From a phage, in NCBI GenBank assembly GCA_033648345.1, contig GCA_033648345.1_4121.1: DNA of 64,000 nucleotides; one strand, 5' to 3'. The position numbers and the translations under genes are program-made. The notes beneath the pieces were generated by a model. The model ran no database searches and was not told the DNA's origin. It was given only the letters and a program-made list of their open reading frames with translations. Shown here piece by piece: positions 3,936-43,866 of this stretch. Position 1 is the first letter of the stretch. Each line of letters begins with the position of its first letter.

Positions 3936-5348
3936 ATGGCTAAAAGTAAAAAAACCGAAAATCAAAGCATCGATAACCAAACACTAACTCTACTAGATTA
4001 TAACAGTTCTGATTATGTGAATACCACATCACTAGAATATTCAATGTACACACTAGACCGTGCAATCCCTGGGATTGATGGCCTTAAGAGTTCACAGCGT
4101 AAAGCAATCTTCACCCTCTCAAAAGTTAGTGGTGAAATCAAAACTGTATCATGTGCTGGTAAAATGATTAGTGATGGTATCTATCTACACGGTGATACAT
4201 CTGCATCTGGTACTCTTCAGAACCTAGCATCACCAGTCGTAAACAACTACCCACTCATTGGTAAACGTGGTGGTTTTGGTACACAAGTAAACAGTACTCC
4301 AGCTTCTGCTCGTTATACTTATGTTAAAAAGAATAAAAGTACTGAAATGTTAGTACTACGTGACTCTGACATTATTCCAATGAAAGAGAACTATGATGGT
4401 ACTACAATGGAACCAAGTTTCTTTTTACCTATTATCCCACTATCTTTGTTTGGTAACGATAGTATGTCAGTAGGTTATAAGAGTACAATTCTACCACATA
4501 AGATTGAAGATGTTATTGATAACTGTATTCGTGCTATTGATAAAAAACCATTAAAAGAAATGACTCCATACTATGTTTCATGTGGTGCAAGTGATATCGT
4601 AACTAAGCTTGATGAAAACAAATATGAGTTCTATGGTAAAGCACAAGTAATTGATGCCAGTACTGTTAAAGTGACAGGTCTACCACCAAACTACAGTATT
4701 GAGAAATTCATCGAGAAACTCATTAAGATGAGCGATGATGGTGATATTCGTGATTATGATAATGATAGTACTGATGTTATTGATATTACAATCAAATTAC
4801 CACGCGGAACATCTGCTAAATGGGTGGAGAAAGATGTAATTGAATACTTTGGCATTCATAAGAAGATGACACAAATCCTAACTGTTCTAGGTGAGAATGG
4901 TAAGGTTAAAGTCTATGATAACACAATGGATTTGATTAAGGACTTTGTTGAATTCCGTTTCAAATACTATGTGAAACGCTATGAGAAGAAACTTGATGAT
5001 TGTGCTGCTGAAGTACGTTATAAGATTCTAATCAAAGAATGTTTTGATAATGATATGATTGCTAAGGTTAAGGGTTTTGCTAACCGTTCAGAAATGGTTG
5101 AGTTTGTTAAATCATTAAACACTGAAATCGAAGCAACCGATGAGAATATTCAAAGCATCGTAAACTTCCCATCATATCGTTGGACCCAAGACAATTATCA
5201 ATCAGTACTAGCTGATATTCAACATAACTTGGATTTAATGGATGAATATAACAATCTCCTGTCGAATCATGATTTGATTTGGAACATCTATAAAGATGAG
5301 TTGAAAGAACTACGTAAGATTGACTTCACGCCAAAAACTGAAGATTGA
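3936..5348 (+). CDS. 52: DNA topoisomerase II medium subunit (GyrA-like breakage-reunion domain; T4 gp52-type)
   Basis: N-terminal YSMYTLDRAIPGIDGLKSSQRKAIF resembles GyrA/ParC N-terminus; immediately downstream of the gp39-type gene. Confidence 0.8.
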   Translation: MAKSKKTENQSIDNQTLTLLDYNSSDYVNTTSLEYSMYTLDRAIPGIDGLKSSQRKAIFTLSKVSGEIKTVSCAGKMISDGIYLHGDTSASGTLQNLASPVVNNYPLIGKRGGFGTQVNSTPASARYTYVKKNKSTEMLVLRDSDIIPMKENYDGTTMEPSFFLPIIPLSLFGNDSMSVGYKSTILPHKIEDVIDNCIRAIDKKPLKEMTPYYVSCGASDIVTKLDENKYEFYGKAQVIDASTVKVTGLPPNYSIEKFIEKLIKMSDDGDIRDYDNDSTDVIDITIKLPRGTSAKWVEKDVIEYFGIHKKMTQILTVLGENGKVKVYDNTMDLIKDFVEFRFKYYVKRYEKKLDDCAAEVRYKILIKECFDNDMIAKVKGFANRSEMVEFVKSLNTEIEATDENIQSIVNFPSYRWTQDNYQSVLADIQHNLDLMDEYNNLLSNHDLIWNIYKDELKELRKIDFTPKTED

Positions 5349-5358
5349 TTATAAACAG

Positions 5359-5389
5359 GGAAGACCTTTGTGGGTCTTCCTTGTCCTTT
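5359..5389 (+). terminator. probable terminator
   Basis: ggaagacc-tttgtg-ggtcttcc hairpin followed by T-rich tract. Confidence 0.5.
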
Positions 5390-5390
5390 A

Positions 5391-5398
5391 TATAAATA
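5391..5398 (+). promoter_or_regulatory. T4-type late promoter TATAAATA
   Basis: Exact TATAAATA about 40 nt upstream of the ATG at 5437; RBS GGAGA at about 5426. Confidence 0.5.
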
Positions 5399-5436
5399 AT
5401 CTATAGATAATGGTAGCTTGGCTATGGAGAATTATA

Positions 5437-7833
5437 ATGACAACTTTTACCCCTAGATGGGATATAAAAGCCGATGCTCGATATATACAAGAAGGACAAG
5501 ACATTCTTGTGCGTTTGAGTATCAACAAAGAAACCACAACGGATGATAGTTATATACTTAATGAAAACGAATACTTAGAGATGATTCTAACTATTCAGGG
5601 TTTGGACAGTTCTGATGCAGTATTTCAACCAGAAGATCACTACGCAGTGTATGTTGGGAATGATGAATCTAATCTCACACCTATATCATCAGGTATTACT
5701 GGTAACAAGTTGATTAATGGTAAGCACAAATGTAAAATTGATAAAACTCAATTTGATCTATCGGCAAGCACTAATACCGAAGATGTTTATTTTATTAAAT
5801 TGCATTGTAAAGATGATGGTACATTTAACAACTCTGAACAGATTAACTTCTATCTTCAAGCAGTAAATGTTATGTACTATGGTAACATTTCCCCTAGTGG
5901 TGAAATTGGTTCAAATGAAGTAACAATTGAATATGATAGCCAGGAAGTGTGGGTTACTCCTGGAATCGAAATCGGTGATGATGACAAATTATATTGTATT
6001 GGCGATATTGAATACGGTTCCAACAGTACTTTATTTGTACAGGGATTTGGTCGCCGTCGTCCATTTATTTTAGGAACTGATACATCAACTGACCTATCTC
6101 CTAGAGTATTTTATCCAGCGTATCGTCTACTCGATATGACCCCAGCAGAAGTTCCTGCTCGCCACATTACTGATGATTATGCAATCCTACGTCCTATTGA
6201 TAATATATGGCCTGTATTTGGTATTAATAAAGAAATTAAGGTTAATATTCAAACTAGCTCTGGGGAGTTACTAGATTCAGGATTGGTTTTCAACCCAAAT
6301 GGACAATTTCTGCAAACATTCCTATATGACTCTGATGCATGTGATGCATATTTCAAAGTTGAAATTGTTGATATTTTGAGTACATATAGTTATGACACTG
6401 ACCGCTTCGCTATAAACCAACGTTTCAAAGCATATCAAATGTGGGTATGTCCAGACAATGTAGATGGTATATACGCTGATGGTGATAAACCTTTACCTAA
6501 TCATTTGTATCAGTTGAAAGATAACGTTGTATATCCATATGTAATCTCTGGTGAATATGATCTAGGTGAAACAAAGCCAGTGTTTAAAAGTTCAGATTGG
6601 ATTGATTTAGGATATTATGATTCAAGCTTAGGTGCGAATATTATAGGTGAAGAGAAGATGTTCCGTGTTCTAGTGAACGCAGAAGAAGGAAACTCAATAG
6701 ACTTCACAACTGATAGTGATTTAGGTAGTATTCATGTGGGTGAATATTTCGGTCACAGTACTTATCCACAAATACAAACTACCAGTACTAATCAGGTATC
6801 TTATGTATTAGATGGTGGGCCTGATGATATTCGCAAATATGGTTTGGACCTCACCGCAGATGGGTTCTTGGTCGGGACGGCATATGCAAAAAGTTTAGAT
6901 TTCAGTGCAAATGATGATATAAAATTAGAATTCAACATCAAAGCATATGACACTGAAGGTGGTGTTGCGTCCAAGTTATTTAAACTGAAAATTGTACGTG
7001 GTTTTGGACAAAACTACTTAAGTGCACATATTGTACCTTCTGTTTATTTTGAACGTGAATGGTTTAAGTGTATTAGTACACCATCATTTACAAAACAAGC
7101 TTTCCATCGTCAATCAGATGATAGATACGGGTTACAAAAAGTACCACGTATTCTATTAAAAGAAAACTTTTTGAGTCAGAACTATACTTACACTACGTTG
7201 AGTGATATTAAAAAAGTACTTAGGGAAAATATCATAAACCAATCTGGTGCAACTATACCTGATGGAAAATTTAGAATGGTAATGGGCAACTATAAAGTAA
7301 TGTCAGCACTTGACAACCAAGGTAACTTGCAGTATGATATATTATACCGTGAAGTTTTACCCGCAGGTTCATTGGTGTCGGTTTCTAAGAATCCAAGAAG
7401 TTACACGCAAATTGATAACGGAACACTCGGTGAAATATTTGGCTTGCGTCAAAATATTTTTGCAGCAATTGGTGAAGACACAACTAACCTTGTGAAAGAC
7501 CCAACTGATTTACAAAACCGTGGTTTGTATGTAGATGCTATACCAGGAATTTCTGATGAGATGCTTGACACTGTTCCTCGCTTCATGAATCACCCATACG
7601 AAGAAAATGGAGTTGAAAAGAAATTTATGCCAATCATTCCAGTTGCATATTGTGCACCAGGAAAGGGCGAAGCATTCTTTAACACTTTACTTCAGAACAA
7701 TGAACATGGTAAGATGGTTGGTGTTGAGTTTGAAATCACAGGAGTTGAGTTTGGATTCTTTGCACATGAATTCGAAAACTACGTTCATGATACATTTTTG
7801 ATTTCATTACAAAACAGCAATTTAGGAGGATGA
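5437..7833 (+). CDS. large hypothetical protein (about 798 aa), probably late-expressed virion/structural protein
   Basis: Long ORF; start chosen at in-frame ATG after GGAGA RBS; late-promoter consensus upstream; no recognisable catalytic motif. Confidence 0.5.
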   Translation: MTTFTPRWDIKADARYIQEGQDILVRLSINKETTTDDSYILNENEYLEMILTIQGLDSSDAVFQPEDHYAVYVGNDESNLTPISSGITGNKLINGKHKCKIDKTQFDLSASTNTEDVYFIKLHCKDDGTFNNSEQINFYLQAVNVMYYGNISPSGEIGSNEVTIEYDSQEVWVTPGIEIGDDDKLYCIGDIEYGSNSTLFVQGFGRRRPFILGTDTSTDLSPRVFYPAYRLLDMTPAEVPARHITDDYAILRPIDNIWPVFGINKEIKVNIQTSSGELLDSGLVFNPNGQFLQTFLYDSDACDAYFKVEIVDILSTYSYDTDRFAINQRFKAYQMWVCPDNVDGIYADGDKPLPNHLYQLKDNVVYPYVISGEYDLGETKPVFKSSDWIDLGYYDSSLGANIIGEEKMFRVLVNAEEGNSIDFTTDSDLGSIHVGEYFGHSTYPQIQTTSTNQVSYVLDGGPDDIRKYGLDLTADGFLVGTAYAKSLDFSANDDIKLEFNIKAYDTEGGVASKLFKLKIVRGFGQNYLSAHIVPSVYFEREWFKCISTPSFTKQAFHRQSDDRYGLQKVPRILLKENFLSQNYTYTTLSDIKKVLRENIINQSGATIPDGKFRMVMGNYKVMSALDNQGNLQYDILYREVLPAGSLVSVSKNPRSYTQIDNGTLGEIFGLRQNIFAAIGEDTTNLVKDPTDLQNRGLYVDAIPGISDEMLDTVPRFMNHPYEENGVEKKFMPIIPVAYCAPGKGEAFFNTLLQNNEHGKMVGVEFEITGVEFGFFAHEFENYVHDTFLISLQNSNLGG

Positions 7834-7834
7834 T

Positions 7835-8146
7835 ATGTTCAATCCATTTTTTGATCCATCAACCATGACCGAGAAAGAGTTACAATTGAAAATTAACGAA
7901 CAATCGATGCGTATTACGTCTGCTCGTGCAGCAGGTATGAGTGATATGATTGTTGGTAACATGCAAACCGTTCTGAATCAGTGCTATGCTGAATTAGAGA
8001 TTCGTCAGGGACAAAAAGAAAAAACATCCTATGATGAACAAGACCCATGTATATTTGACATGAACTCTTACTTAACGGATAACGAAGAGGATCAGAAGAA
8101 GAAAAATGAAAGTACAAGGAAACAGATTTATAAGTCCCAATGGTGA
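7835..8146 (+). CDS. hypothetical protein
   Basis: 103-aa ORF, start overlaps stop of upstream gene. Confidence 0.4.
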   Translation: MFNPFFDPSTMTEKELQLKINEQSMRITSARAAGMSDMIVGNMQTVLNQCYAELEIRQGQKEKTSYDEQDPCIFDMNSYLTDNEEDQKKKNESTRKQIYKSQW

Positions 8147-8624
8147 TGTAAAATGTAACCTTAATGCAGTCGTGTATGCAATCAACTGTGGTGCAGATAT
8201 TCAGTACTTACAGCTACAGGAGATTGATGAACCGGAACGATTGAAATTTAACGATAATTGTAAAAAATTTGGTTTAGAACAGCGTATGCTGGATTATACA
8301 ATAGAACATGATAAAAACCATGAGCTATGGCGTTATGATCCAGTGTACGATAACATCAACTTGCGTGAGTACTTTTTACAGAAATGTACATCGGATGAAG
8401 CCCGTGAACGTGTAATGTATGAGATTGATTTGTTTGAACATTACAACATGACTAAGCTTTTAAGATGTATGATCTGGTTAGTTGATTATATGGAAGAGCA
8501 CAATATTTTTTGGGGTCTTGGGCGTGGTAGTTCAGTGGCTTCGTATTGTTTGTTCCTGATTGATTTGCATATGGTTGATTCTTTGAAGTATAAACTAGAT
8601 GTAAATGAATTTTTGAAATGGTAG
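8106..8624 (+). CDS. hypothetical protein
   Basis: 172-aa ORF; start uncertain (overlaps previous ORF by 41 nt). Confidence 0.4.
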   Translation: MKVQGNRFISPNGDVKCNLNAVVYAINCGADIQYLQLQEIDEPERLKFNDNCKKFGLEQRMLDYTIEHDKNHELWRYDPVYDNINLREYFLQKCTSDEARERVMYEIDLFEHYNMTKLLRCMIWLVDYMEEHNIFWGLGRGSSVASYCLFLIDLHMVDSLKYKLDVNEFLKW

Positions 8625-8642
8625 AAAAACATGTGATATAAT
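8613..8642 (+). promoter_or_regulatory. sigma70-like early promoter
   Basis: TTGAAA -35, about 18-nt spacer, TGtGaTATAAT extended -10. Confidence 0.45.
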
Positions 8643-8687
8643 GTTGTTTGAGGCGTTATATCACTCACATAGAAAAAGGATTTTTAT

Positions 8688-9032
8688 ATGTCAAAACACA
8701 CAACTTATCGTGGAACCACCATTGATATGGATATGCTAAAGTATCAAAACCAGCACAAAGTAGCACTAGGTAATGCAAACCTAAATGCTCGTGGTGATAA
8801 GATTGGTTCAGGTGGTACGGTCATTAAAACCCGTGAAGAACTAATCCAAGAAAAAGAACGTGAAATGCAAATTCCTGATTTCATTCCTGAACACCAACTT
8901 CACAGTGCTGAATATAGTACTGAAGAAGTATGGGATGATGAAAGCTTTGAAGTTCAACCACAAGAACCAGAAGTTGAAGTATCTGAAGAGAAGAAAGCTC
9001 CACGCCGAGCAAAAACTAAAGATCAGGAGTAA
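8688..9032 (+). CDS. hypothetical protein
   Basis: 114-aa ORF with acidic C-terminal half. Confidence 0.45.
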   Translation: MSKHTTYRGTTIDMDMLKYQNQHKVALGNANLNARGDKIGSGGTVIKTREELIQEKEREMQIPDFIPEHQLHSAEYSTEEVWDDESFEVQPQEPEVEVSEEKKAPRRAKTKDQE

Positions 9033-9035
9033 TTC

Positions 9036-9362
9036 ATGACCAATAAAGTAATGACAGCTTGTAAAGGTAAAGTTATTGTAACTGAACTAGAACATGGTGA
9101 GCGTAAAACCGCAGGTGGTATTGTACTGACAAGTGATGATGGTAAGATACGTGGTATTCGTTGTCGTTGGGCTAAAGTATATTCTGTTGGTGAAGACATT
9201 ACCGATATCAAAGAAGGACAATGGATTCTAATTGACCACGGTCGTTGGTCGAGAACTATTGAGATTGATGGTATTAAAATGAATCTCGTGGATTATCCAG
9301 CAGCAGTAAGTTTGGTATCTGACACTGATCCACGCATCTCTGCTCAAACATTTGGTCGTTAA
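9036..9362 (+). CDS. 31: GroES-like co-chaperonin (Cpn10 fold; functional analog of T4 gp31)
   Basis: KGKVIVTELEHGERKTAGGIVLT... matches GroES signature (AGGIVLT, mobile-loop region); 108 aa. Confidence 0.7.
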   Translation: MTNKVMTACKGKVIVTELEHGERKTAGGIVLTSDDGKIRGIRCRWAKVYSVGEDITDIKEGQWILIDHGRWSRTIEIDGIKMNLVDYPAAVSLVSDTDPRISAQTFGR

Positions 9363-11393: not shown

Positions 11394-11960
11394 ATGGATG
11401 ATTTAGATTATACAGATAATGCAGTCCAGCAGTTGTATGATAACAGCGGTATGCTAGATATACTTCTGGCTGTTGAAAAATATTTTGATGATAATGATTT
11501 GTACGCATATCATGGTATCATCGAAGGTGAACTCGTTGAAGGTCCGATTGTTAGTAAGTACTGGTGTACTGTGACATTCAAATACTATCGTGAGAATTTC
11601 CCTGATCCTACTGCATTCTCAATTCTTGAGAAGCACGGGACTAAGGTATATGTGAAAGCAGATTATGAAATTACACCTATTCAAGATCCTAACCGTCAGG
11701 CTGATATGAAGAGTGTGGCAACGCAATCTGGTTCTGTTCGTATTCCAAAAAATGAACGAATTCCAGTTCTATTGGTTCGTGTACAAATTCCTAGAAACCT
11801 AATCAACCCTGAAAGTTTTGATGAATACAAACTAATGGCTTCCGAGTTCAATAGTAATCCTATGAATGCACAAGAACCATCAGATGAGCCAATTACTGGT
11901 GAAGATGTTGATTTAGATGTAGAAGTATCTGATGATGTACAACAAGGTGGTATGCAATGA
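11394..11960 (+). CDS. hypothetical protein
   Basis: 188-aa ORF; coupled (ATGA overlap) to next gene. Confidence 0.5.
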   Translation: MDDLDYTDNAVQQLYDNSGMLDILLAVEKYFDDNDLYAYHGIIEGELVEGPIVSKYWCTVTFKYYRENFPDPTAFSILEKHGTKVYVKADYEITPIQDPNRQADMKSVATQSGSVRIPKNERIPVLLVRVQIPRNLINPESFDEYKLMASEFNSNPMNAQEPSDEPITGEDVDLDVEVSDDVQQGGMQ

Positions 11961-12637
11961 AAAAGAAACTAAATGAACAAGGTTTACGTCCACAAGTACT
12001 AAAGGATTTGATTCATCCTATTATTAGTGTAGATGAATATACTCCTAAGATTGAAGATAGTAATATCGTTGTTATGTTTCAAGTACTAAACAACTTTGAT
12101 GCTGCATATGACCTGTCATCTTTTATTGAGAAGTCTCCAATTGATGCAGTTGATACTGAAGCTGCTGAAACACCTAACCTGGATGGTCGTTATCAGGTAT
12201 TCGTTGAAATGGAACGTGATGCGGAATTTCCAGAAAACCTACTTCGTCTTATCAAAACTATTGAAAACATTTGCCCAAATCCTGGCTGGAAGATTCAGCT
12301 TTATGGTGTGAATGATCCGATTGATGTTGATTTTGATGAAATTCAACAACGTATCGATTTGGGTATTCCTAAATCCATCAGTGAATTTTTAGACTTTGCT
12401 GGTGTATCTGTTGTTAAAGAAGGTCACATGCTTGCACTAAACACTGCATATGGTAAACTACATTACAGTACTGGTAGTGGCTTTGTGTCAGAAGCATACG
12501 TAAAACAGCTTCTATCGAACGATACGCAGGTAGATACATCTCGCTTAAGTTCGGTACTAGGTGAAAGTTATAGCGTCCTACGTAGCGGTAATCAGTATGT
12601 AGTAGGTAAAGATGGGAAGTATTTGGTGTTACGATGA
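11957..12637 (+). CDS. hypothetical protein
   Basis: 226-aa ORF. Confidence 0.5.
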   Translation: MKKKLNEQGLRPQVLKDLIHPIISVDEYTPKIEDSNIVVMFQVLNNFDAAYDLSSFIEKSPIDAVDTEAAETPNLDGRYQVFVEMERDAEFPENLLRLIKTIENICPNPGWKIQLYGVNDPIDVDFDEIQQRIDLGIPKSISEFLDFAGVSVVKEGHMLALNTAYGKLHYSTGSGFVSEAYVKQLLSNDTQVDTSRLSSVLGESYSVLRSGNQYVVGKDGKYLVLR

Positions 12638-13452
12638 GAATTTTAAACATGCTTAAATCTCTCCATGAGACTACCAAACTTCACCAAGACGACAAGTATC
12701 ATCGTAGTACAACTAAAGATTTGGCATGTAGAATGTATATGAGACGATTCGAAATTTCTCGAATCGGTAAAGGATGGGACGATATCAAACGTGAAGATAT
12801 CGACCCTGATGCGGTATTCAAAGCATACATGGCACGAAAAGTTTTTATCAATGAGAAAACTTTTTATATTGACAGCGATAAAGAACTTGAAGTAAAATTT
12901 ACGAAAGGCTTGTGGAAGATTTGGTGCTTAGAGACGTTCGGTGAAGTTTTACCAGAGCCACCAGTACCAGAAACTTACAAAGATCTAAAAGCTATATTTG
13001 ACAATGAACATATACATACAAATTACTCACTATATGAAACTGTTTCCGAAGCGGTATTTTATGGAGAGTTGAACGGTCATAACAAGTACTTTGATAGTAT
13101 GGTGAGTTTTGATTTATTCTGTCATCTCCCTGGTATCTCTAGTTGGACATGTGACCAGCATCGAGCTAGTAAGGTAGACAAGCGTAAGTTCTCTGCTCAA
13201 CGCTTTATGCAAGCTGCTATGGGTATGTACAAATTGGATTATCTTGGGTGTCCAGAACCATATAAACATTTTTGGAAAGAACGTGCACAAAAGTGCATGA
13301 ACTATTGTATAATTCGTTTAATGGATTCATACATTTTAAAATTCAGAAATGCAACTGTGTATGATATGCCGGAACCACCAAAGAATGAAAAGTACCCACC
13401 AGTAAAAACATTTGTGTGGTACAAGGACAAGAGTAACAAAAGGATGCACTAA
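12634..13452 (+). CDS. hypothetical protein
   Basis: 272-aa ORF, ATGA-coupled to upstream gene. Confidence 0.5.
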   Translation: MRILNMLKSLHETTKLHQDDKYHRSTTKDLACRMYMRRFEISRIGKGWDDIKREDIDPDAVFKAYMARKVFINEKTFYIDSDKELEVKFTKGLWKIWCLETFGEVLPEPPVPETYKDLKAIFDNEHIHTNYSLYETVSEAVFYGELNGHNKYFDSMVSFDLFCHLPGISSWTCDQHRASKVDKRKFSAQRFMQAAMGMYKLDYLGCPEPYKHFWKERAQKCMNYCIIRLMDSYILKFRNATVYDMPEPPKNEKYPPVKTFVWYKDKSNKRMH

Positions 13453-13468
13453 GGTGCGTCCTTTTTTC
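13441..13468 (+). terminator. rho-independent terminator
   Basis: aggatgcac-taag-gtgcgtcct hairpin then TTTTTT. Confidence 0.6.
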
Positions 13469-13482
13469 TTTTAAAAAATGGT

Positions 13483-13511
13483 TTGACAAATACATCGTCA
13501 GTATGTAGAAT
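13483..13511 (+). promoter_or_regulatory. sigma70-like early promoter
   Basis: TTGACA, 17-nt spacer, TAGAAT. Confidence 0.6.
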
Positions 13512-13551: not shown

Positions 13552-14679
13552 ATGAAAGGAAAATATTTTTTCATTGACAACGGCAAAGAAGTTGAAATCA
13601 AAGAATTTAACTTCAACTACGTTCTTAACTCACTGTTAAAACAGTATGACCGTTCATCGAATCGAAAATATATGTATACAATTGTTGTGGACAGAACATA
13701 CGATTCACTGGGAAATCCACATTTCGACACACGTTCACTTTCACTTGACGAGATCTATTTTGATAATCGCCGTTTGAAGGTAATGGATTTGATGAAAGAT
13801 AAAATTCATTTCTCAAATGTGAGAATCGTTCCAGATCTCCCAATTCCTCCGTTAGAGAAGGAGTACCGAGACTGGAAGGAAGGTAAACTTCGTCCAAACA
13901 TGGCAGCAGTAGCTACTTCACCAGAAGTTCCGGCTCCTATTGTTCTTAAGAAGAAACCTATCGATCCTGAATGTGATATGGTTGCTGACATTGAACGTTG
14001 GATGGAATTCCCAGATACAATTAAAAAAGATTCGGTAAAAGTACTGGATTGGTATGTTAACCTCCCAGTATGTGCACAAGAAGTTGGTATGAAGATTCAG
14101 AAGATCTCTGAGCGACAATTGGATTTGAACGCAGCACTACAACAACACAGTGATTATATCCGTTTATTAATGGGTAACCTTACAACAGCACTGGAAAAGT
14201 TATTCCCGTTGAAGCCTACCTTTGCACAGAAGTTGTTTGGGAAAGCAGATATCAAAGTTCAACCATCTGATTTACCAAAAGTAATGAAAGCATTGAATGA
14301 GGCCGTGAAGTACGATACTAACAAGTTTAGTGGTATTACGTCTTTATTCACTGAAATTCGTGATGAAGTTCGTGAAATCAAAAATGAACTTGAGTATGGT
14401 AAGATTGGGTGTGAATATGCAATTCGTCGTTTGGAAGATCCATTTGAATATGAACTAACGCTTGAACGTATTATGAAAATGGGTATTTCAACAGCAATGA
14501 CTGAAACTAGTATTGTTGGTGTTAGTAAGCAGTATCAGATTGATATGAGCCGAATGATTGATATTCAAACTATCACTATCCCATTGATTATAGGTCGTTT
14601 ACAAGCTCAAACTGGTAAAGCAGTCGATGAAGATACTGCCAATATCATTCGCAACCTAGCGTATGGAAATAAAGAGTAA
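13552..14679 (+). CDS. hypothetical protein
   Basis: 375-aa ORF downstream of promoter. Confidence 0.5.
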   Translation: MKGKYFFIDNGKEVEIKEFNFNYVLNSLLKQYDRSSNRKYMYTIVVDRTYDSLGNPHFDTRSLSLDEIYFDNRRLKVMDLMKDKIHFSNVRIVPDLPIPPLEKEYRDWKEGKLRPNMAAVATSPEVPAPIVLKKKPIDPECDMVADIERWMEFPDTIKKDSVKVLDWYVNLPVCAQEVGMKIQKISERQLDLNAALQQHSDYIRLLMGNLTTALEKLFPLKPTFAQKLFGKADIKVQPSDLPKVMKALNEAVKYDTNKFSGITSLFTEIRDEVREIKNELEYGKIGCEYAIRRLEDPFEYELTLERIMKMGISTAMTETSIVGVSKQYQIDMSRMIDIQTITIPLIIGRLQAQTGKAVDEDTANIIRNLAYGNKE

Positions 14680-14686
14680 AAAGTAG

Positions 14687-14715
14687 TTGACAGTACTGAG
14701 TGTTGCCTGTAGAAT
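14687..14715 (+). promoter_or_regulatory. sigma70-like early promoter
   Basis: TTGACA, 17-nt spacer gtactgagtgttgcctg, TAGAAT. Confidence 0.6.
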
Positions 14716-14761: not shown

Positions 14762-15904
14762 ATGTCCGAGAAAGAAATCAATCCGAAAAAAGCAACAGTT
14801 AAACAAGCCAAAGCAACCAAAACTGCCAAACGTACTACCAAAACAGCAGCACACACAATTGACGCAACTGATATCTTCGAACAACAGTCCAAGTCACTTC
14901 CAGTACTGAAAGATACTAAAGGCAACAGTATGGCGTTAACTGTGCAGAATATTAATACCATCGGAACCACTGCTGGGGCAGGTGTAGGACGTTTGGCTGA
15001 TGAAATCATGTCAAAAGTTAACGTCACTGATGATAATACTGAATTCGGTAAGTCTATTACTACTATCTTGACATTGACTCGTGCAGTTGATATTGATAGT
15101 CTACAGGATGATAAATCAATCGTAGGCTGGGTCAAAAAACTTTTTGTTAATGCTAAACAGAAAGTTGGCGATCAGTACAAAAACAGTAAAGAACAAATTG
15201 ATGAAATCATGAACACTCTTCAGGTTGGTATTAACCGCCAGCATGGGGAATGTGCATGGCTAGACACTGCTTACAACGAAAACAAAAACTATCTCTTTGA
15301 ACTGCGTGATACGTTAGTTGAGTTGGAAGAAGTTACCAAAGCACAAGATGCTGAATTGGTAGCAATGCAAGCGAACCCTGACGTTGATTCTTTTGCAATC
15401 CAGGAGCAAAAGATGATTTGTGAAGCTCTTTCTAAACAGGAAGATAAGATTCGTCGTCTTATCATGATGTGTGAACTGAGCGGTCCTCGCCTGATGAGTA
15501 TGAAGAAAGTAAACCTCAACACTGTTTCTAAGTTTGAGGATTTGAAATCAGTTGTTATTCCAGCATGGAAATCACAATTGGCTGAACAGTTGATTTCCGA
15601 ACGTCAACGTAAAGACAATGAGTTGGGTAATCTGATTGACAATGAAACTAACCGTTTACTCGAAGTAAACTCTAAAATGGTAGCAACTAACATGTTGGAT
15701 GCTGCTAAGGCAAATAATCGTGGTATCGTGGATATTAAAACATTGCGTAATGTACACAAAACAATGATTGATAGCATCGAAGCAGTACTGATTGAAGAGA
15801 AGAAAGGTAAAGAAGAGCGTGAGCGAGCTAAGATTGAAATCGCAAAACTCTCTCATGAACTTGAAGATACTCTTCGTGAAATTGCTGAAAAAGCTAACAA
15901 GTAA
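14762..15904 (+). CDS. hypothetical protein, predicted alpha-helical/coiled-coil
   Basis: Start set at ATG after GAGGAA RBS (ORF-track start 14687 lies inside the promoter); 380 aa, K/E-rich repeats. Confidence 0.5.
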   Translation: MSEKEINPKKATVKQAKATKTAKRTTKTAAHTIDATDIFEQQSKSLPVLKDTKGNSMALTVQNINTIGTTAGAGVGRLADEIMSKVNVTDDNTEFGKSITTILTLTRAVDIDSLQDDKSIVGWVKKLFVNAKQKVGDQYKNSKEQIDEIMNTLQVGINRQHGECAWLDTAYNENKNYLFELRDTLVELEEVTKAQDAELVAMQANPDVDSFAIQEQKMICEALSKQEDKIRRLIMMCELSGPRLMSMKKVNLNTVSKFEDLKSVVIPAWKSQLAEQLISERQRKDNELGNLIDNETNRLLEVNSKMVATNMLDAAKANNRGIVDIKTLRNVHKTMIDSIEAVLIEEKKGKEERERAKIEIAKLSHELEDTLREIAEKANK

Positions 15905-15907
15905 TAG

Positions 15908-15936
15908 TTGACACAAGAGTGCGTTTTCAATATAAT
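15908..15936 (+). promoter_or_regulatory. sigma70-like early promoter
   Basis: TTGACA, 17 nt, TATAAT. Confidence 0.55.
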
Positions 15937-15985: not shown

Positions 15986-16675
15986 ATGAAACGTCGTCAT
16001 GTTAGTGTTGATATTGAAGCTCTTGGAACTCCTGAAAACTCTGGTTATGATATTATTATTCCAAATTATGCAGCAGTAGTTGTTCCAAGTAAACCTGAAC
16101 ATGATATCAGACAATTTGTATATGTTAAGTTACCATACCAAGCACAAGTCAACGCTGGGCTGAAATCAGATGCAGGTGCAATGGATTTCTGGATGAATAC
16201 ATGTCAGAAGGAATATCCTAATGCATATGCTGAAGTTGCCAGTACTATGGCACTTGTTGCACCAGAATTGTACGGTCCTAATGGTAAATCCAAACAAATC
16301 TTTACTTCTAATGGTATTGTCGATTTCTGGAAAGATATCCGTTTTGATTGTTATGGTAACGAGGTTGAACATTCAATTTGGGGAAATGGCTGCAACTTCG
16401 ACTGTAGTATTTTACAAGCTAATCACTTAAAACTATTGAATGTTGGTGATTTGTGGAAATATGATGCTCCTGAAAACGCACGAACCCTGAAGCGTTTATT
16501 GAATGAAGAAGCTCGTACCGAAATGGATGAGATTGTGTCAGTGCAGTTAGCTAAATTCGTGAAGTATGTAGAAAAATGTGGTATTAATGGTTTGGAATTA
16601 CATCACCCTCTGTATGATGCAGCACGTGAAGCTATCCAAATCTCCTATTGTCTCAATAAACTTAAACTGGACTAA
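15986..16675 (+). CDS. dexA: DEDDh 3'-5' exonuclease (T4 DexA-like)
   Basis: Exo motifs VSVDIEALG, GNGCNFDCSIL, HHPLYDAAREA. Confidence 0.6.
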   Translation: MKRRHVSVDIEALGTPENSGYDIIIPNYAAVVVPSKPEHDIRQFVYVKLPYQAQVNAGLKSDAGAMDFWMNTCQKEYPNAYAEVASTMALVAPELYGPNGKSKQIFTSNGIVDFWKDIRFDCYGNEVEHSIWGNGCNFDCSILQANHLKLLNVGDLWKYDAPENARTLKRLLNEEARTEMDEIVSVQLAKFVKYVEKCGINGLELHHPLYDAAREAIQISYCLNKLKLD

Positions 16676-16678
16676 TAC

Positions 16679-17773
16679 ATGAATTTTATTATTCTGTTGA
16701 TTCCTTCACTTATCGTTGTATTTGTTATGAAATACATGTATGATAAGCATATCAGTACTAAAGAACTGTTGATTCATATTGGTTGTTGTATAGTTGGTGC
16801 TGCTCTTGTGCTTGGTATCTCATATGCAATCAACTACAGCCAATTGTACGATGTAGAGATTCTAAATGGGCAGGTAACATCCAAATATAATCACAAGGAG
16901 TTTTGTACACAATCAAGCTCATGTAAGCATTACACGTGGCACGAGAAATGCAGAACTCGTTATGATAGTAAGGGGAAATCCCATCGTGAATGTGAGTCCT
17001 ATAAGGTATTTGATTATTCATACGAAGTTGACTGGTATGTAAAAAGTACTGTAGGGAAGTTTGAGATTGAGCGAGTAAACCGCCAGGGTACAATGACCCC
17101 TCCACGCTGGCAACAGGTTAACATTGGGGATTATGCCGCCGCAGAAAGTTCTTATATTAACTATCTGTTCGCTGATAAAAACTCATTGTTTAGTCCTGGT
17201 GAATTACATGAAATGTATGATGAGAAATATCTTAGTACTTTGCCAGAATACCCAAGTGTGGTAGACTATTATAAAACACACCACGTAATCAACACTACTA
17301 ATTATAATGTAGATGGTTATGATGAGTATCTGCGTGAAGAACTAAAAACTATGGGTGCACGTAAACAAGTCAACATCCAAGTTTTGGTTTATGATTATAA
17401 AAACGTAGATTTTGTTGAGGCAACACTCGCTTCGTGGCGTGGTGGTAAGAAGAATGATGTTATTATGTTCTTTGGAATTGATAATGATGGGAAGATTGTT
17501 AAATTTGATAGCACTTCCTTTGCACAAGGCATGAAGAACGAAGAACTACATGCTAAGATGCGAATGGATGCATTAAATGAAAAATTAACTCTTGACTTGT
17601 TGAGAAAAGAAGTGCATAATATTGACACAAAGTTTGAAAGACTCTCTAATAAAGAGTTCGAGTACTTGTCTGTAAAAATGGAACCACGTAAAGATGTTCT
17701 CATCGGTGCTTCTATTTTATTACTGATTGTATCTATTTTCATTGGCCTTTATATGAGGGATAACAAGTTATGA
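16679..17773 (+). CDS. membrane protein with N- and C-terminal TM helices and Cys-rich central region; candidate LemA partner
   Basis: Hydrophobic N-terminus and C-terminus; ATGA-coupled to downstream LemA-like gene. Confidence 0.45.
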   Translation: MNFIILLIPSLIVVFVMKYMYDKHISTKELLIHIGCCIVGAALVLGISYAINYSQLYDVEILNGQVTSKYNHKEFCTQSSSCKHYTWHEKCRTRYDSKGKSHRECESYKVFDYSYEVDWYVKSTVGKFEIERVNRQGTMTPPRWQQVNIGDYAAAESSYINYLFADKNSLFSPGELHEMYDEKYLSTLPEYPSVVDYYKTHHVINTTNYNVDGYDEYLREELKTMGARKQVNIQVLVYDYKNVDFVEATLASWRGGKKNDVIMFFGIDNDGKIVKFDSTSFAQGMKNEELHAKMRMDALNEKLTLDLLRKEVHNIDTKFERLSNKEFEYLSVKMEPRKDVLIGASILLLIVSIFIGLYMRDNKL

Positions 17774-18324
17774 ATGGTAAAATTATTGCATTGATTGGTG
17801 TTGTTGTTGTATTCGGTCTTATGGCAATTGGTTCAGTTAGTATGTATGTAGATGCACATGACCGTGCTGTTGAATTTGAAGGTAATATTAAAAAGTACTA
17901 TGATGCATCAGAAAGTCAACTAAGTAAATACACTCTTGTCATTCAAGAAAAAGTACAAGTTTCTGATAAGTATAAGGATGCATTAAAAGAAACCATCGAA
18001 ACATACTTTAAAGGTCGTGAAGGTGTTGACCAGAAGTTTGTGATGTCACAGATTCAACAACAGGTTCCTAATCTCGATCCTAAGATTTATCAAGAACTTA
18101 TGGTAACTATCGAGTCAGGACGTACACAGTTCAACAATCTTCAGAAAATGAAAATTGACCAGTGTACTGATTATGCTAAGTTCCGTAAAGGTTTCTGGAA
18201 CTCCAAAATTCTTGATACTAACACATTCCCAAGTGAAAATATTGAACATTTATGTACAGTAGTTTCTGATACACGCACCAAGAAAGCAATGGATACTGGT
18301 ATCCAAGAAGTAATTAAACTATAA
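17770..18324 (+). CDS. LemA-family membrane protein
   Basis: N-terminal TM helix plus spacing of conserved blocks (..DRAVEFEGNIKKYYD.., ..LDPKIYQELMVTIESGRTQFNN..) resembling LemA. Confidence 0.5.
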   Translation: MNGKIIALIGVVVVFGLMAIGSVSMYVDAHDRAVEFEGNIKKYYDASESQLSKYTLVIQEKVQVSDKYKDALKETIETYFKGREGVDQKFVMSQIQQQVPNLDPKIYQELMVTIESGRTQFNNLQKMKIDQCTDYAKFRKGFWNSKILDTNTFPSENIEHLCTVVSDTRTKKAMDTGIQEVIKL

Positions 18325-18333
18325 TCTAAATCT

Positions 18334-18357
18334 GGGAGTACATTGTACTCCCATTTT
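18334..18357 (+). terminator. rho-independent terminator
   Basis: gggagtac-att-gtactccc hairpin then ATTTTC. Confidence 0.6.
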
Positions 18358-18371
18358 CTATAGGATTTATT

Positions 18372-40926: not shown

Positions 40927-41455
<529 letters not shown>

Positions 41456-43770: not shown

Positions 43771-43849
<79 letters not shown>

Positions 43850-43866
43850 CAAAATAAAGGTACACT

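Follow-up and report, generated by a model that had tools for sequence, protein, structure and literature searches.

Few bacterial membrane proteins without an assigned function are as widespread as those of the LemA and TPM families. Two adjoining genes at positions 16,679 to 18,324 of a 64,000-nucleotide stretch of phage DNA (GenBank assembly GCA_033648345.1, contig GCA_033648345.1_4121.1; the whole stretch is referred to as the window) raise the question of whether proteins of these two kinds are also employed as a pair by phages, and what role they might play during infection. A preliminary description, made from the sequence alone, had interpreted the two products of 184 and 364 amino acids (aa) as a LemA-like membrane protein and its coupled membrane partner. 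The analysis presented here supports this interpretation in its essentials: the two genes very probably encode a highly diverged phage version of the bacterial LemA-TPM pair, that is, a known but functionally unexplained kind of pair which is widely conserved in large lytic phages.

Sequence comparison of the window gave 99.3% identity with the Asteriusvirus-type jumbo coliphages BF17, Ecwhy_1 and fEgEco12, and about 82% with PBECO4. By this identity it belongs to a jumbo coliphage of the Asteriusvirus type and not to a T4-like phage, as the framing of the preliminary description had implied. All features of the pair and of the three-gene unit to which it belongs given in the following lie on the plus strand. 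The gene for the 364-aa TPM-like inner-membrane protein (16679-17773; phrog_2087) precedes that of the 184-aa remote LemA homologue (17770-18324; phrog_1383), and the two overlap by 4 nucleotides (nt; ATGA). At the junction (17755-17773), as read from the sequence, a Shine-Dalgarno-like GAGGG (17755-17759) is followed by a 10-nt spacer and by an ATG overlapping the upstream TGA, so that both open reading frames (ORFs) and their translationally coupled layout were found as described. As homologues with identities from 99% down to about 25% are present in some 485 phage records, both ORFs are real genes and not chance ORFs.

Relationship of the 184-aa protein to LemA

At the level of its family, the 184-aa protein is related to bacterial LemA. 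The family was collected by an exhaustive profile search, since a word-indexed homologue search reached the close jumbo-phage relatives only, and comprises 728 clusters at 50% identity (expectation value, E, ≤1e-3), nearly all of 180-200 aa. Comparison of this family by hhalign with a reference profile of 26 aligned bona fide LemA proteins, all annotated with PF04011, gave a probability of 98.3% (E 2e-14) over 154 co-linear columns including the transmembrane (TM) helix; with the close jumbo-phage relatives only, the values were 86% and 5e-6. Matches were also obtained reciprocally with hidden Markov models (HMMs), as the phage-family HMM recognised bacterial LemA proteins at 1e-17 to 1e-12 and the bacterial LemA HMM recognised several phage members at 1e-8 to 1e-4. 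The Pfam LemA profile PF04011 individually matched 22 of the 137 aligned family members (best value 2.9e-6). When the 177,635 sequences of the PDB were compared with the wider-family profile, the sole significant match was 2ETD (E 1e-7; profile positions 30-159 against chain positions 9-155), and a second comparison of the family with 2ETD resulted in 95%. The LemA-like character that had been proposed for the protein is thus borne out at the level of remote homology.

The architecture agrees with this relationship. The 184-aa protein starts with a TM helix (residues ~5-25), continues with a helical domain like that of LemA (~26-157) and closes with a C-terminal tail that is conserved (~160-184), and its AlphaFold2 (AF2) model displays a long first helix (residues 3-62) followed by helices 66-81, 88-98 and 104-140. 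Exactly one TM helix is present in 136 of 137 family members, and bacterial LemA proteins, at 186-193 aa, show the same layout. When the alignment was compared with the canonical LemA blocks (YN-LV, QLQRRADLIPNLV, ENYPxLKA and RxxYNxxVxxYN), the Y/N near the membrane, an E-x-N-P-x-x-D corresponding approximately to ENYPxL, and R-x-Y were found to be retained; the QLQRRADLIPNLV block (RRADLIPNLV) is not conserved. Each of the two cysteines C132 and C162 is present in about 36% of the wider family, and among the close jumbo-phage relatives both are invariant. A disulfide bond may link them, as would suit a periplasmic location.

Some results weigh against a LemA assignment. In direct scans, no LemA match of the 184-aa protein was obtained in Pfam (E≤1), NCBIfam or PADLOC, and its score against a home-built bacterial LemA HMM was only 11 bits. 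The lack of a significant LemA profile match had been named in the preliminary description as the outcome that would count against its reading, and for the single sequence Pfam and NCBIfam indeed give none. PDB searches with the single sequence or with the profile of its close family also returned nothing, PADLOC gave a weak and implausible match to a retron reverse transcriptase (E 0.0036), and PHROGs places the protein in phrog_1383, labelled ‘virion structural protein’, while some GenBank records name it ‘LEMA protein’.

The absence of a direct Pfam or NCBIfam match, the non-specific outcome of structure searches with the 184-aa protein and the loss of the canonical QLQRRADLIPNLV motif would all be in line with a spurious resemblance, caused by the compositional similarity of helical proteins, in which case the pair would be an unrelated phage-specific membrane module. 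We consider this highly improbable, as the profile-profile match extends co-linearly over TM helix and domain, 2ETD stands alone among the PDB sequences, the HMM matches are reciprocal at equal length and architecture, and the partner, analysed on its own, proves to have the fold that is typical of the usual neighbour of LemA, which would hardly be expected by chance. As judged from these comparisons, the 184-aa protein belongs to the LemA superfamily as a distant but genuine member that the curated profiles do not detect.

The 364-aa partner and the pairing in phages and bacteria

Hydropathy analysis predicted three TM helices within the 364-aa protein (residues ~3-21, ~30-48 and 340-358), in agreement with helices 2-20, 27-54 and 338-361 of an AF2 model, which was based on 59 homologues and is confident (predicted local distance difference test, pLDDT, 90.8). 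Together with the one N-terminal TM helix of the 184-aa protein, which hydropathy places at residues ~5-23, this confirms by topology prediction the helices that had been noticed at both ends of the larger protein. Two N-terminal TM helices (~2-20 and ~27-54; 16682-16840) with a short basic loop, predicted from hydropathy, Lys/Arg counts and AF2 to be cytoplasmic, are followed by a beta-rich domain (~57-160; 16847-17158), an alpha/beta domain with a predicted TPM fold (~200-335; 17276-17683) and, according to hydropathy and an AF2 helix, a C-terminal TM anchor (~338-361; 17690-17761) that is followed by the short basic tail RDNKL. The protein contains six cysteines in all, two of which lie in the second TM helix. 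The other four form a CX5CX8CX13C cluster within the beta-rich domain (C76, C82, C91 and C105; 16904-16993) and are conserved in 90, 97, 97 and 71% of the 59 homologues, respectively. Hence, the cluster behind the ‘Cys-rich central region’ of the preliminary description does exist, but with six cysteines in all ‘Cys-rich’ is overstated, and the cluster occupies the N-proximal soluble part instead of the centre. No fold match was obtained for the beta-rich domain, and it could represent a new fold that recognises a component of the host envelope.

In the AF2 model, the region of residues ~200-335 adopts the alpha-beta-alpha sandwich of the TPM fold. It includes a loop, W253-x2-G256-K-K-N259-D260, in which W253, G256, K257, K258, N259 and D260 are near-invariant across the 59 homologues and which aligns to the signature W-x-I-G-x-K-x-N-N-G-V of the Thermotoga TPM protein, an alignment that is not significant by itself. 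TPM sequences have been described as highly divergent, with a conserved fold (PMC13456599). The sequence comparisons speak against the assignment: PF04536 (TPM) did not match the 364-aa protein and matched only one of its 59 relatives (E 0.0016), and hhalign of the family gave a probability of 6% with the Thermotoga TPM partner and nothing with that of Brevibacillus. The TPM assignment rests on the predicted structure. Searches of Pfam, NCBIfam and the PADLOC defence-system profiles with the 364-aa protein returned no match, phrog_2087 in PHROGs being the only one obtained, and the family profile matched nothing in the PDB. Between the two partner types that had been suggested, TPM or DUF2207, the former agrees with the modelled domain, and the latter was rejected as neither the protein nor any of the 59 relatives gave a match (E≤0.01). 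For the partner, at present a ‘hypothetical protein’ in the databases, a description as membrane protein with a TPM fold is now available.

The same pairing occurs in bacteria. In all three bacterial loci examined, Thermotoga, Brevibacillus and Thermincola, a LemA gene is directly followed by a TPM gene, and in Thermotoga and Brevibacillus the LemA stop codon overlaps or abuts the start of a PF04536 TPM gene. For the Thermincola partner there is no Pfam match on record, and it was recognised by the TPM motif only. In the bacterial partners, the TPM domain is preceded by a signal peptide or TM helix, and after it come a C-terminal TM helix and a Gly-rich tail. With LemA-then-TPM in three bacterial loci and a TPM fold in the modelled phage partner, the preliminary statement that LemA genes commonly pair with a membrane partner holds, and the phage pair is the same two-component module as the bacterial one. 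The gene order is a point against this equation, as the larger gene comes first in the phage, the reverse of the bacterial arrangement. At the Thermincola locus (L011 3501-7312), the canonical LemA gene and its TPM partner are followed by genes for NfeD and the flotillin FloA, which may indicate a connection with membrane microdomains or membrane integrity.

To describe the distribution of the pair, phage records were searched by tblastn, which located the 364-aa protein in 488 and the 184-aa protein in 483 records with a nearly equal host breakdown. Using HMMs of both families, the pair was found adjoining, with the large gene first, in 12 of 12 phage lineages checked: Asteriusvirus, a 499-kb metagenomic jumbo phage, a freshwater T4-like contig, Vibrio phage ICP1, Kuttervirus, Limestonevirus, Agrobacterium Atu_ph07, Acinetobacter Saclayvirus, Aeromonas Ah1, Erwinia Agricanvirus, Xanthomonas BUDD and Pseudomonas HRDY3. 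Thus, the pair is accessory and spread over many phage lineages, in agreement with its earlier designation as an accessory membrane module and not a T4 core pair. In Salmonella phage SJ2 (L008 3501-4610), the RefSeq record splits the TPM-like gene into ORF121 and ORF122; the region holds an intact ORF of 369 codons that matches the family HMM at 7.5e-117, which makes an error in the annotation probable. In the literature searched on LemA in connection with phages (jumbo phages and Ackermannviridae among them), TelA or TPM, the phage pair was not described.

Outside phage records, a pattern-based scan of one genome per species, covering 185,579 bacterial and archaeal species, identified only 27 loci with the phage-type pair, most of them on contigs of metagenome-assembled genomes (MAGs) and many from Patescibacteria. 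The two genes adjoin at 19 of the 27 loci, in 18 cases with the LemA-like gene directly downstream and in one case in reverse order. This sole locus with the bacterial order (L017 356-1995) is on a contig that carries the label of a ‘Rickettsia typhi’ MAG but resembles an environmental bin with a wrong name. On a Kaiserbacteria MAG contig (L014), the phage-type pair (3992-5676) is accompanied 2 kb downstream by a canonical LemA (7566-9062; HMM 3e-60), which is followed by genes for a 23S-rRNA-IVP protein and an M48 peptidase; RmuC is encoded upstream. Two loci are part of long isolate contigs, namely those of Achromobacter anxifer LMG 26857 (L016 3956-5687, on a 487-kb contig) and Variovorax sp. 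WDL1 (L020). The Achromobacter pair is located directly downstream of recA, which itself matches UvsX-like PHROGs, and the other neighbours tested gave no PHROG matches. The occurrence in isolate genomes, in Achromobacter without phage genes detected nearby, indicates that the subfamily is not strictly viral.

Expression, topology and the virion question

The pair is part of a three-gene unit, which is preceded by a perfect sigma-70-type promoter (TTGACA-17-TATAAT, a 12/12 consensus match; 15908-15936). The first gene (15986-16675) encodes an Rv2179c-like 3'-5' exonuclease (PF16473, 5e-9; phrog_255 ‘exonuclease’, 2e-32), and a gap of 3 nt separates its stop codon from the start codon of the 364-aa gene. 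After the 4-nt overlap and the 184-aa gene, the unit is closed by a terminator-like hairpin with a 9-bp stem, including five GC pairs, and a T-run (18333-18359). In relatives, the exonuclease is variously labelled ‘metallopeptidase’, ‘peptidase’, ‘DNA polymerase III subunit epsilon’ or ‘DUF5051’; Pfam and PHROGs back the exonuclease. Allowing up to one mismatch, TTGACA-N17-TATAAT occurs 19 times in the whole window, ten-fold above the 1.9 sites expected by chance, and all sites are on the plus strand (among them positions 13483, 14687, 15908, 31037, 38031 and 57847); four of the 19 are perfect. This enrichment on the coding strand suggests that the whole window is a gene block read by the host RNA polymerase, probably early in infection. 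From its perfect promoter, the pair itself would probably be expressed early by the same polymerase.

To gain an understanding of the membrane topology, the distribution of positive charges was determined. In the 184-aa family (136 homologues), the N-terminal flank of the TM helix carries 2.3 Lys/Arg and the C-terminal flank 1.0, with net charges of +1.3 and -0.6, respectively. By the positive-inside rule, the N-terminus is predicted to be cytoplasmic and the LemA-like domain to be outside, as has also been predicted for the C-terminal domain of LemA (PMC3905215). In the 364-aa family (52 homologues), mean Lys/Arg numbers are 0.02 at the N-terminus, 1.9 in the loop between the first two TM helices, 0.6 after the second helix and 2.4 in the C-terminal tail. 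This loop and the C-terminal tail are therefore predicted to be cytoplasmic, and the beta and TPM region to be outside. The conserved cysteines suggest an oxidising compartment for this region. Taken together, the charge bias places both soluble domains in the periplasm; that charge bias is the sole basis of the predicted topology has to be counted against it.

The label of phrog_1383, which is repeated in records of Kuttervirus, Aeromonas Ah1, Atu_ph07, HRDY3 and Erwinia phages, implies a different fate of the 184-aa protein, namely that of a virion component: possibly a TM protein that is packaged or ejected and inserts into the host inner membrane at infection. A result that speaks in favour of this explanation, and against the non-virion role proposed below, comes from Atu_ph07, where the homologue gp668 was identified by electrospray ionization tandem mass spectrometry with eight peptides and 50.6% coverage. 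However, this preparation was purified by polyethylene glycol only, and gp668 was spread across 12 gel slices with its partner gp669 undetected, a pattern that fits an abundant membrane protein contaminating the preparation together with membrane debris. In the two closest relatives with virion proteome data, phAPEC6 and JP4, the proteins are missing: the phAPEC6 orthologue gp143c (89% identical) is not among the 62 proteins of the virion proteome, and the JP4 orthologues CDS0052/0053 are absent from the table of 49 proteins identified by mass spectrometry (MS), both by coordinates and by sequence. Also in LIMEstone1, ORF194/195, confirmed as the pair by HMM, are not among the 39 MS-verified virion proteins. 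Moreover, the gene follows a consensus sigma-70 promoter, its neighbours are non-structural genes, and its product is homologous to a family of cellular inner-membrane proteins. The PhiSH19 paper, considered as the source of the label in Kuttervirus, contains no proteomics. A role as virion component appears very unlikely, although a true association with the virion is conceivable in some lineages, and the label ‘virion structural protein’ is unsupported for the closest relatives and doubtful for PHROG 1383. With the ‘hypothetical protein’ recognised as a TPM-fold membrane protein, two database labels can be corrected.

The surroundings of the unit were inspected as well. A homologue of TelA (toxic anion resistance; Pfam 1.4e-37) is encoded at 14762-15904 with its own 11/12 promoter at 14687-14715. 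As this promoter overlaps the TTG start (14687) of the mechanically called ORF, the true start is probably the ATG at 14762. The position of TelA next to the pair is peculiar to this phage lineage. TelA and the exonuclease were considered as obligate parts of the module and rejected, as neither accompanies the pair in other lineages and the flanking genes differ everywhere. Further upstream, 13552-14679 encodes a 375-aa protein (phrog_13312) without Pfam match, preceded by a near-consensus promoter (13483-13511) and a strong terminator hairpin (13438-13465). Two small genes at 11394-11960 and 11957-12637 are labelled ‘structural protein’ in Ecwhy_1 and, by size and gene order, are probably the counterparts of phAPEC6 gp150c and gp149c (21.3 and 25.6 kDa), which are MS-confirmed virion proteins within an otherwise non-structural region. 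The window also contains genes for tRNA-Ser(GCT) (41338-41427) and tRNA-Thr(TGT) (43777-43850).

Proposed role and likeness to known systems

The best overall explanation, which we regard as reasonably probable, is that the diverged LemA-TPM pair acts as an early, non-virion membrane scaffold. In this model, both proteins would be co-translated from one transcript starting at the perfect sigma-70 promoter. The 184-aa protein would reside in the inner membrane as a single-pass protein with a LemA-type helical bundle, and the 364-aa protein would be anchored at both ends by TM helices, exposing the Cys-containing beta domain and the TPM-fold domain. Both soluble parts would face the periplasm, where disulfide bonds are probable within the Cys cluster, and a hetero-complex of the two proteins is probable as well. 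Such a complex may condition the host inner membrane or envelope during infection, and candidate tasks would be to maintain membrane integrity over the long cycle of a jumbo phage or to control access to or through the inner membrane, as in superinfection exclusion or lysis timing. The scaffold role taken by itself is put forward as plausible but tentative. It is a role by analogy, and to our knowledge there is no LemA-TPM pair with an experimentally defined function, which weighs against it. In its support, LemA-like domains have been described as membrane-associated scaffolds or remodelers for MamQ (PMC4902198) and ML0451c (bioRxiv 10.64898/2026.07.15.738315), and the LemA protein MamQ is essential for formation of the magnetosome membrane (PMC3905215, PMC4902198). 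A further point against the analogy is that the mycobacterial LemA-like domain, which was modelled as a membrane-associated scaffold, faces the cytoplasm, unlike the predicted phage topology (bioRxiv 10.64898/2026.07.15.738315).

For TPM domains, two kinds of activity have been reported (PMC13456599): a weak phosphatase function, and a function as adapter or auxiliary subunit in complexes of the membrane, the second of which speaks for a scaffold. An enzymatic role is the main alternative to a scaffold. The TPM domain would then be a periplasmic phosphatase or nucleotidase whose substrate is a lipid-linked or a soluble component of the envelope, and the LemA-like protein would serve it as an adaptor in the membrane. 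Acid-phosphatase or ATPase/ADPase activity occurs in some TPM domains, such as TLP18.3, Rv2345 and BA41 (PMC13456599), and the near-invariant W253-D260 loop aligning to the TPM signature loop would be consistent with a functional site. However, this alignment is not statistically significant, no metal- or phosphate-binding residues were identified in the 364-aa protein, the reported activities are weak, and the TPM domains of AscF and MOLO-1 are non-catalytic adapters (PMC13456599). Even between the TPM domains that have been characterised, the metal and activity sites show no conservation (PMC13456599). We regard an enzyme system as quite unlikely.

Within the scaffold reading, the pair might more specifically be a superinfection-exclusion or lysis-timing device in the periplasm, comparable to Imm/Sp or RI of T4. 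Predicted periplasm-facing domains anchored in the inner membrane, a probable early expression, the restriction to large virulent myoviruses and, in Kuttervirus, a position few genes away from rIIA would suit such a device, which is nevertheless unlikely in this narrow form. The broader proposal that an early, periplasm-facing LemA-TPM complex of many large virulent phages remodels or protects the host inner membrane, be it by sealing or repair, by exclusion or by forming membrane domains, is possible but still doubtful.

The diverged LemA-TPM pair has been kept as a unit in about 485 large lytic phage genomes, including Asteriusvirus and other jumbo phages, Ackermannviridae, ICP1 and T4-like Aeromonas phages, and this conservation suggests a recurrent tool for the interaction of phages with the host membrane. 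As the pair is present in tractable and well-studied phages, such as ICP1 and the therapeutic candidates among Kuttervirus and Asteriusvirus, its role is directly testable, and the answer would probably be informative for the bacterial module, too. Should the two proteins indeed constitute a periplasmic remodelling complex, they would provide a first experimental handle on the bacterial LemA-TPM module, as the phage genes can be deleted with sharp phenotypes.

Among the known systems, T4 Imm/Sp and RI resemble the phage pair in being small, inner-membrane-anchored and early, as is probable for the pair, with periplasmic domains as predicted here. This is a likeness of setting only, as there is no sequence or specific fold relationship. 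The analogy with the TPM domains of AscF/AscG in the mycobacterial CIII-CIV supercomplex and of MOLO-1, which serve as adapter or auxiliary subunits, is functional only: AscF is cytoplasmic and belongs to a respiratory complex, whereas the phage pair has no respiratory context and no sequence relationship to it. Closer are the TPM proteins proper (PF04536: TLP18.3/Psb32/MOLO-1; PDB 3PW9, 5ANP, 7TBR, 2KPT and 2KW7), to which the 364-aa protein lacks a significant sequence match. Compared with the LemA-linked TPM proteins of bacteria, it possesses two N-terminal TM helices instead of a cleavable signal peptide, an additional beta-rich four-Cys domain of about 100 residues and no Gly-rich C-terminal tail; it shares with them a TPM domain, here predicted, that is followed by a C-terminal TM anchor and would be extracytoplasmic. 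The 184-aa protein differs from bacterial LemA (PF04011; 2ETD, Thermotoga maritima TM0961; MamQ) by an identity of only about 17-20%, below Pfam detection, by the loss of the QLQRRADLIPNLV block, by an extra conserved C-terminal tail (A-M/F-x-T-G...L), by the Cys pair C132/C162 in about 36% of the family, and by a gene that is mostly phage-borne and located downstream of its partner. Both have in common a size of about 185 aa, an N-terminal TM helix, a helical bundle (predicted for the phage protein) with a long first helix, a C-terminal domain predicted outside the cytoplasm, and a gene that is tightly coupled to that of a TPM-domain protein.

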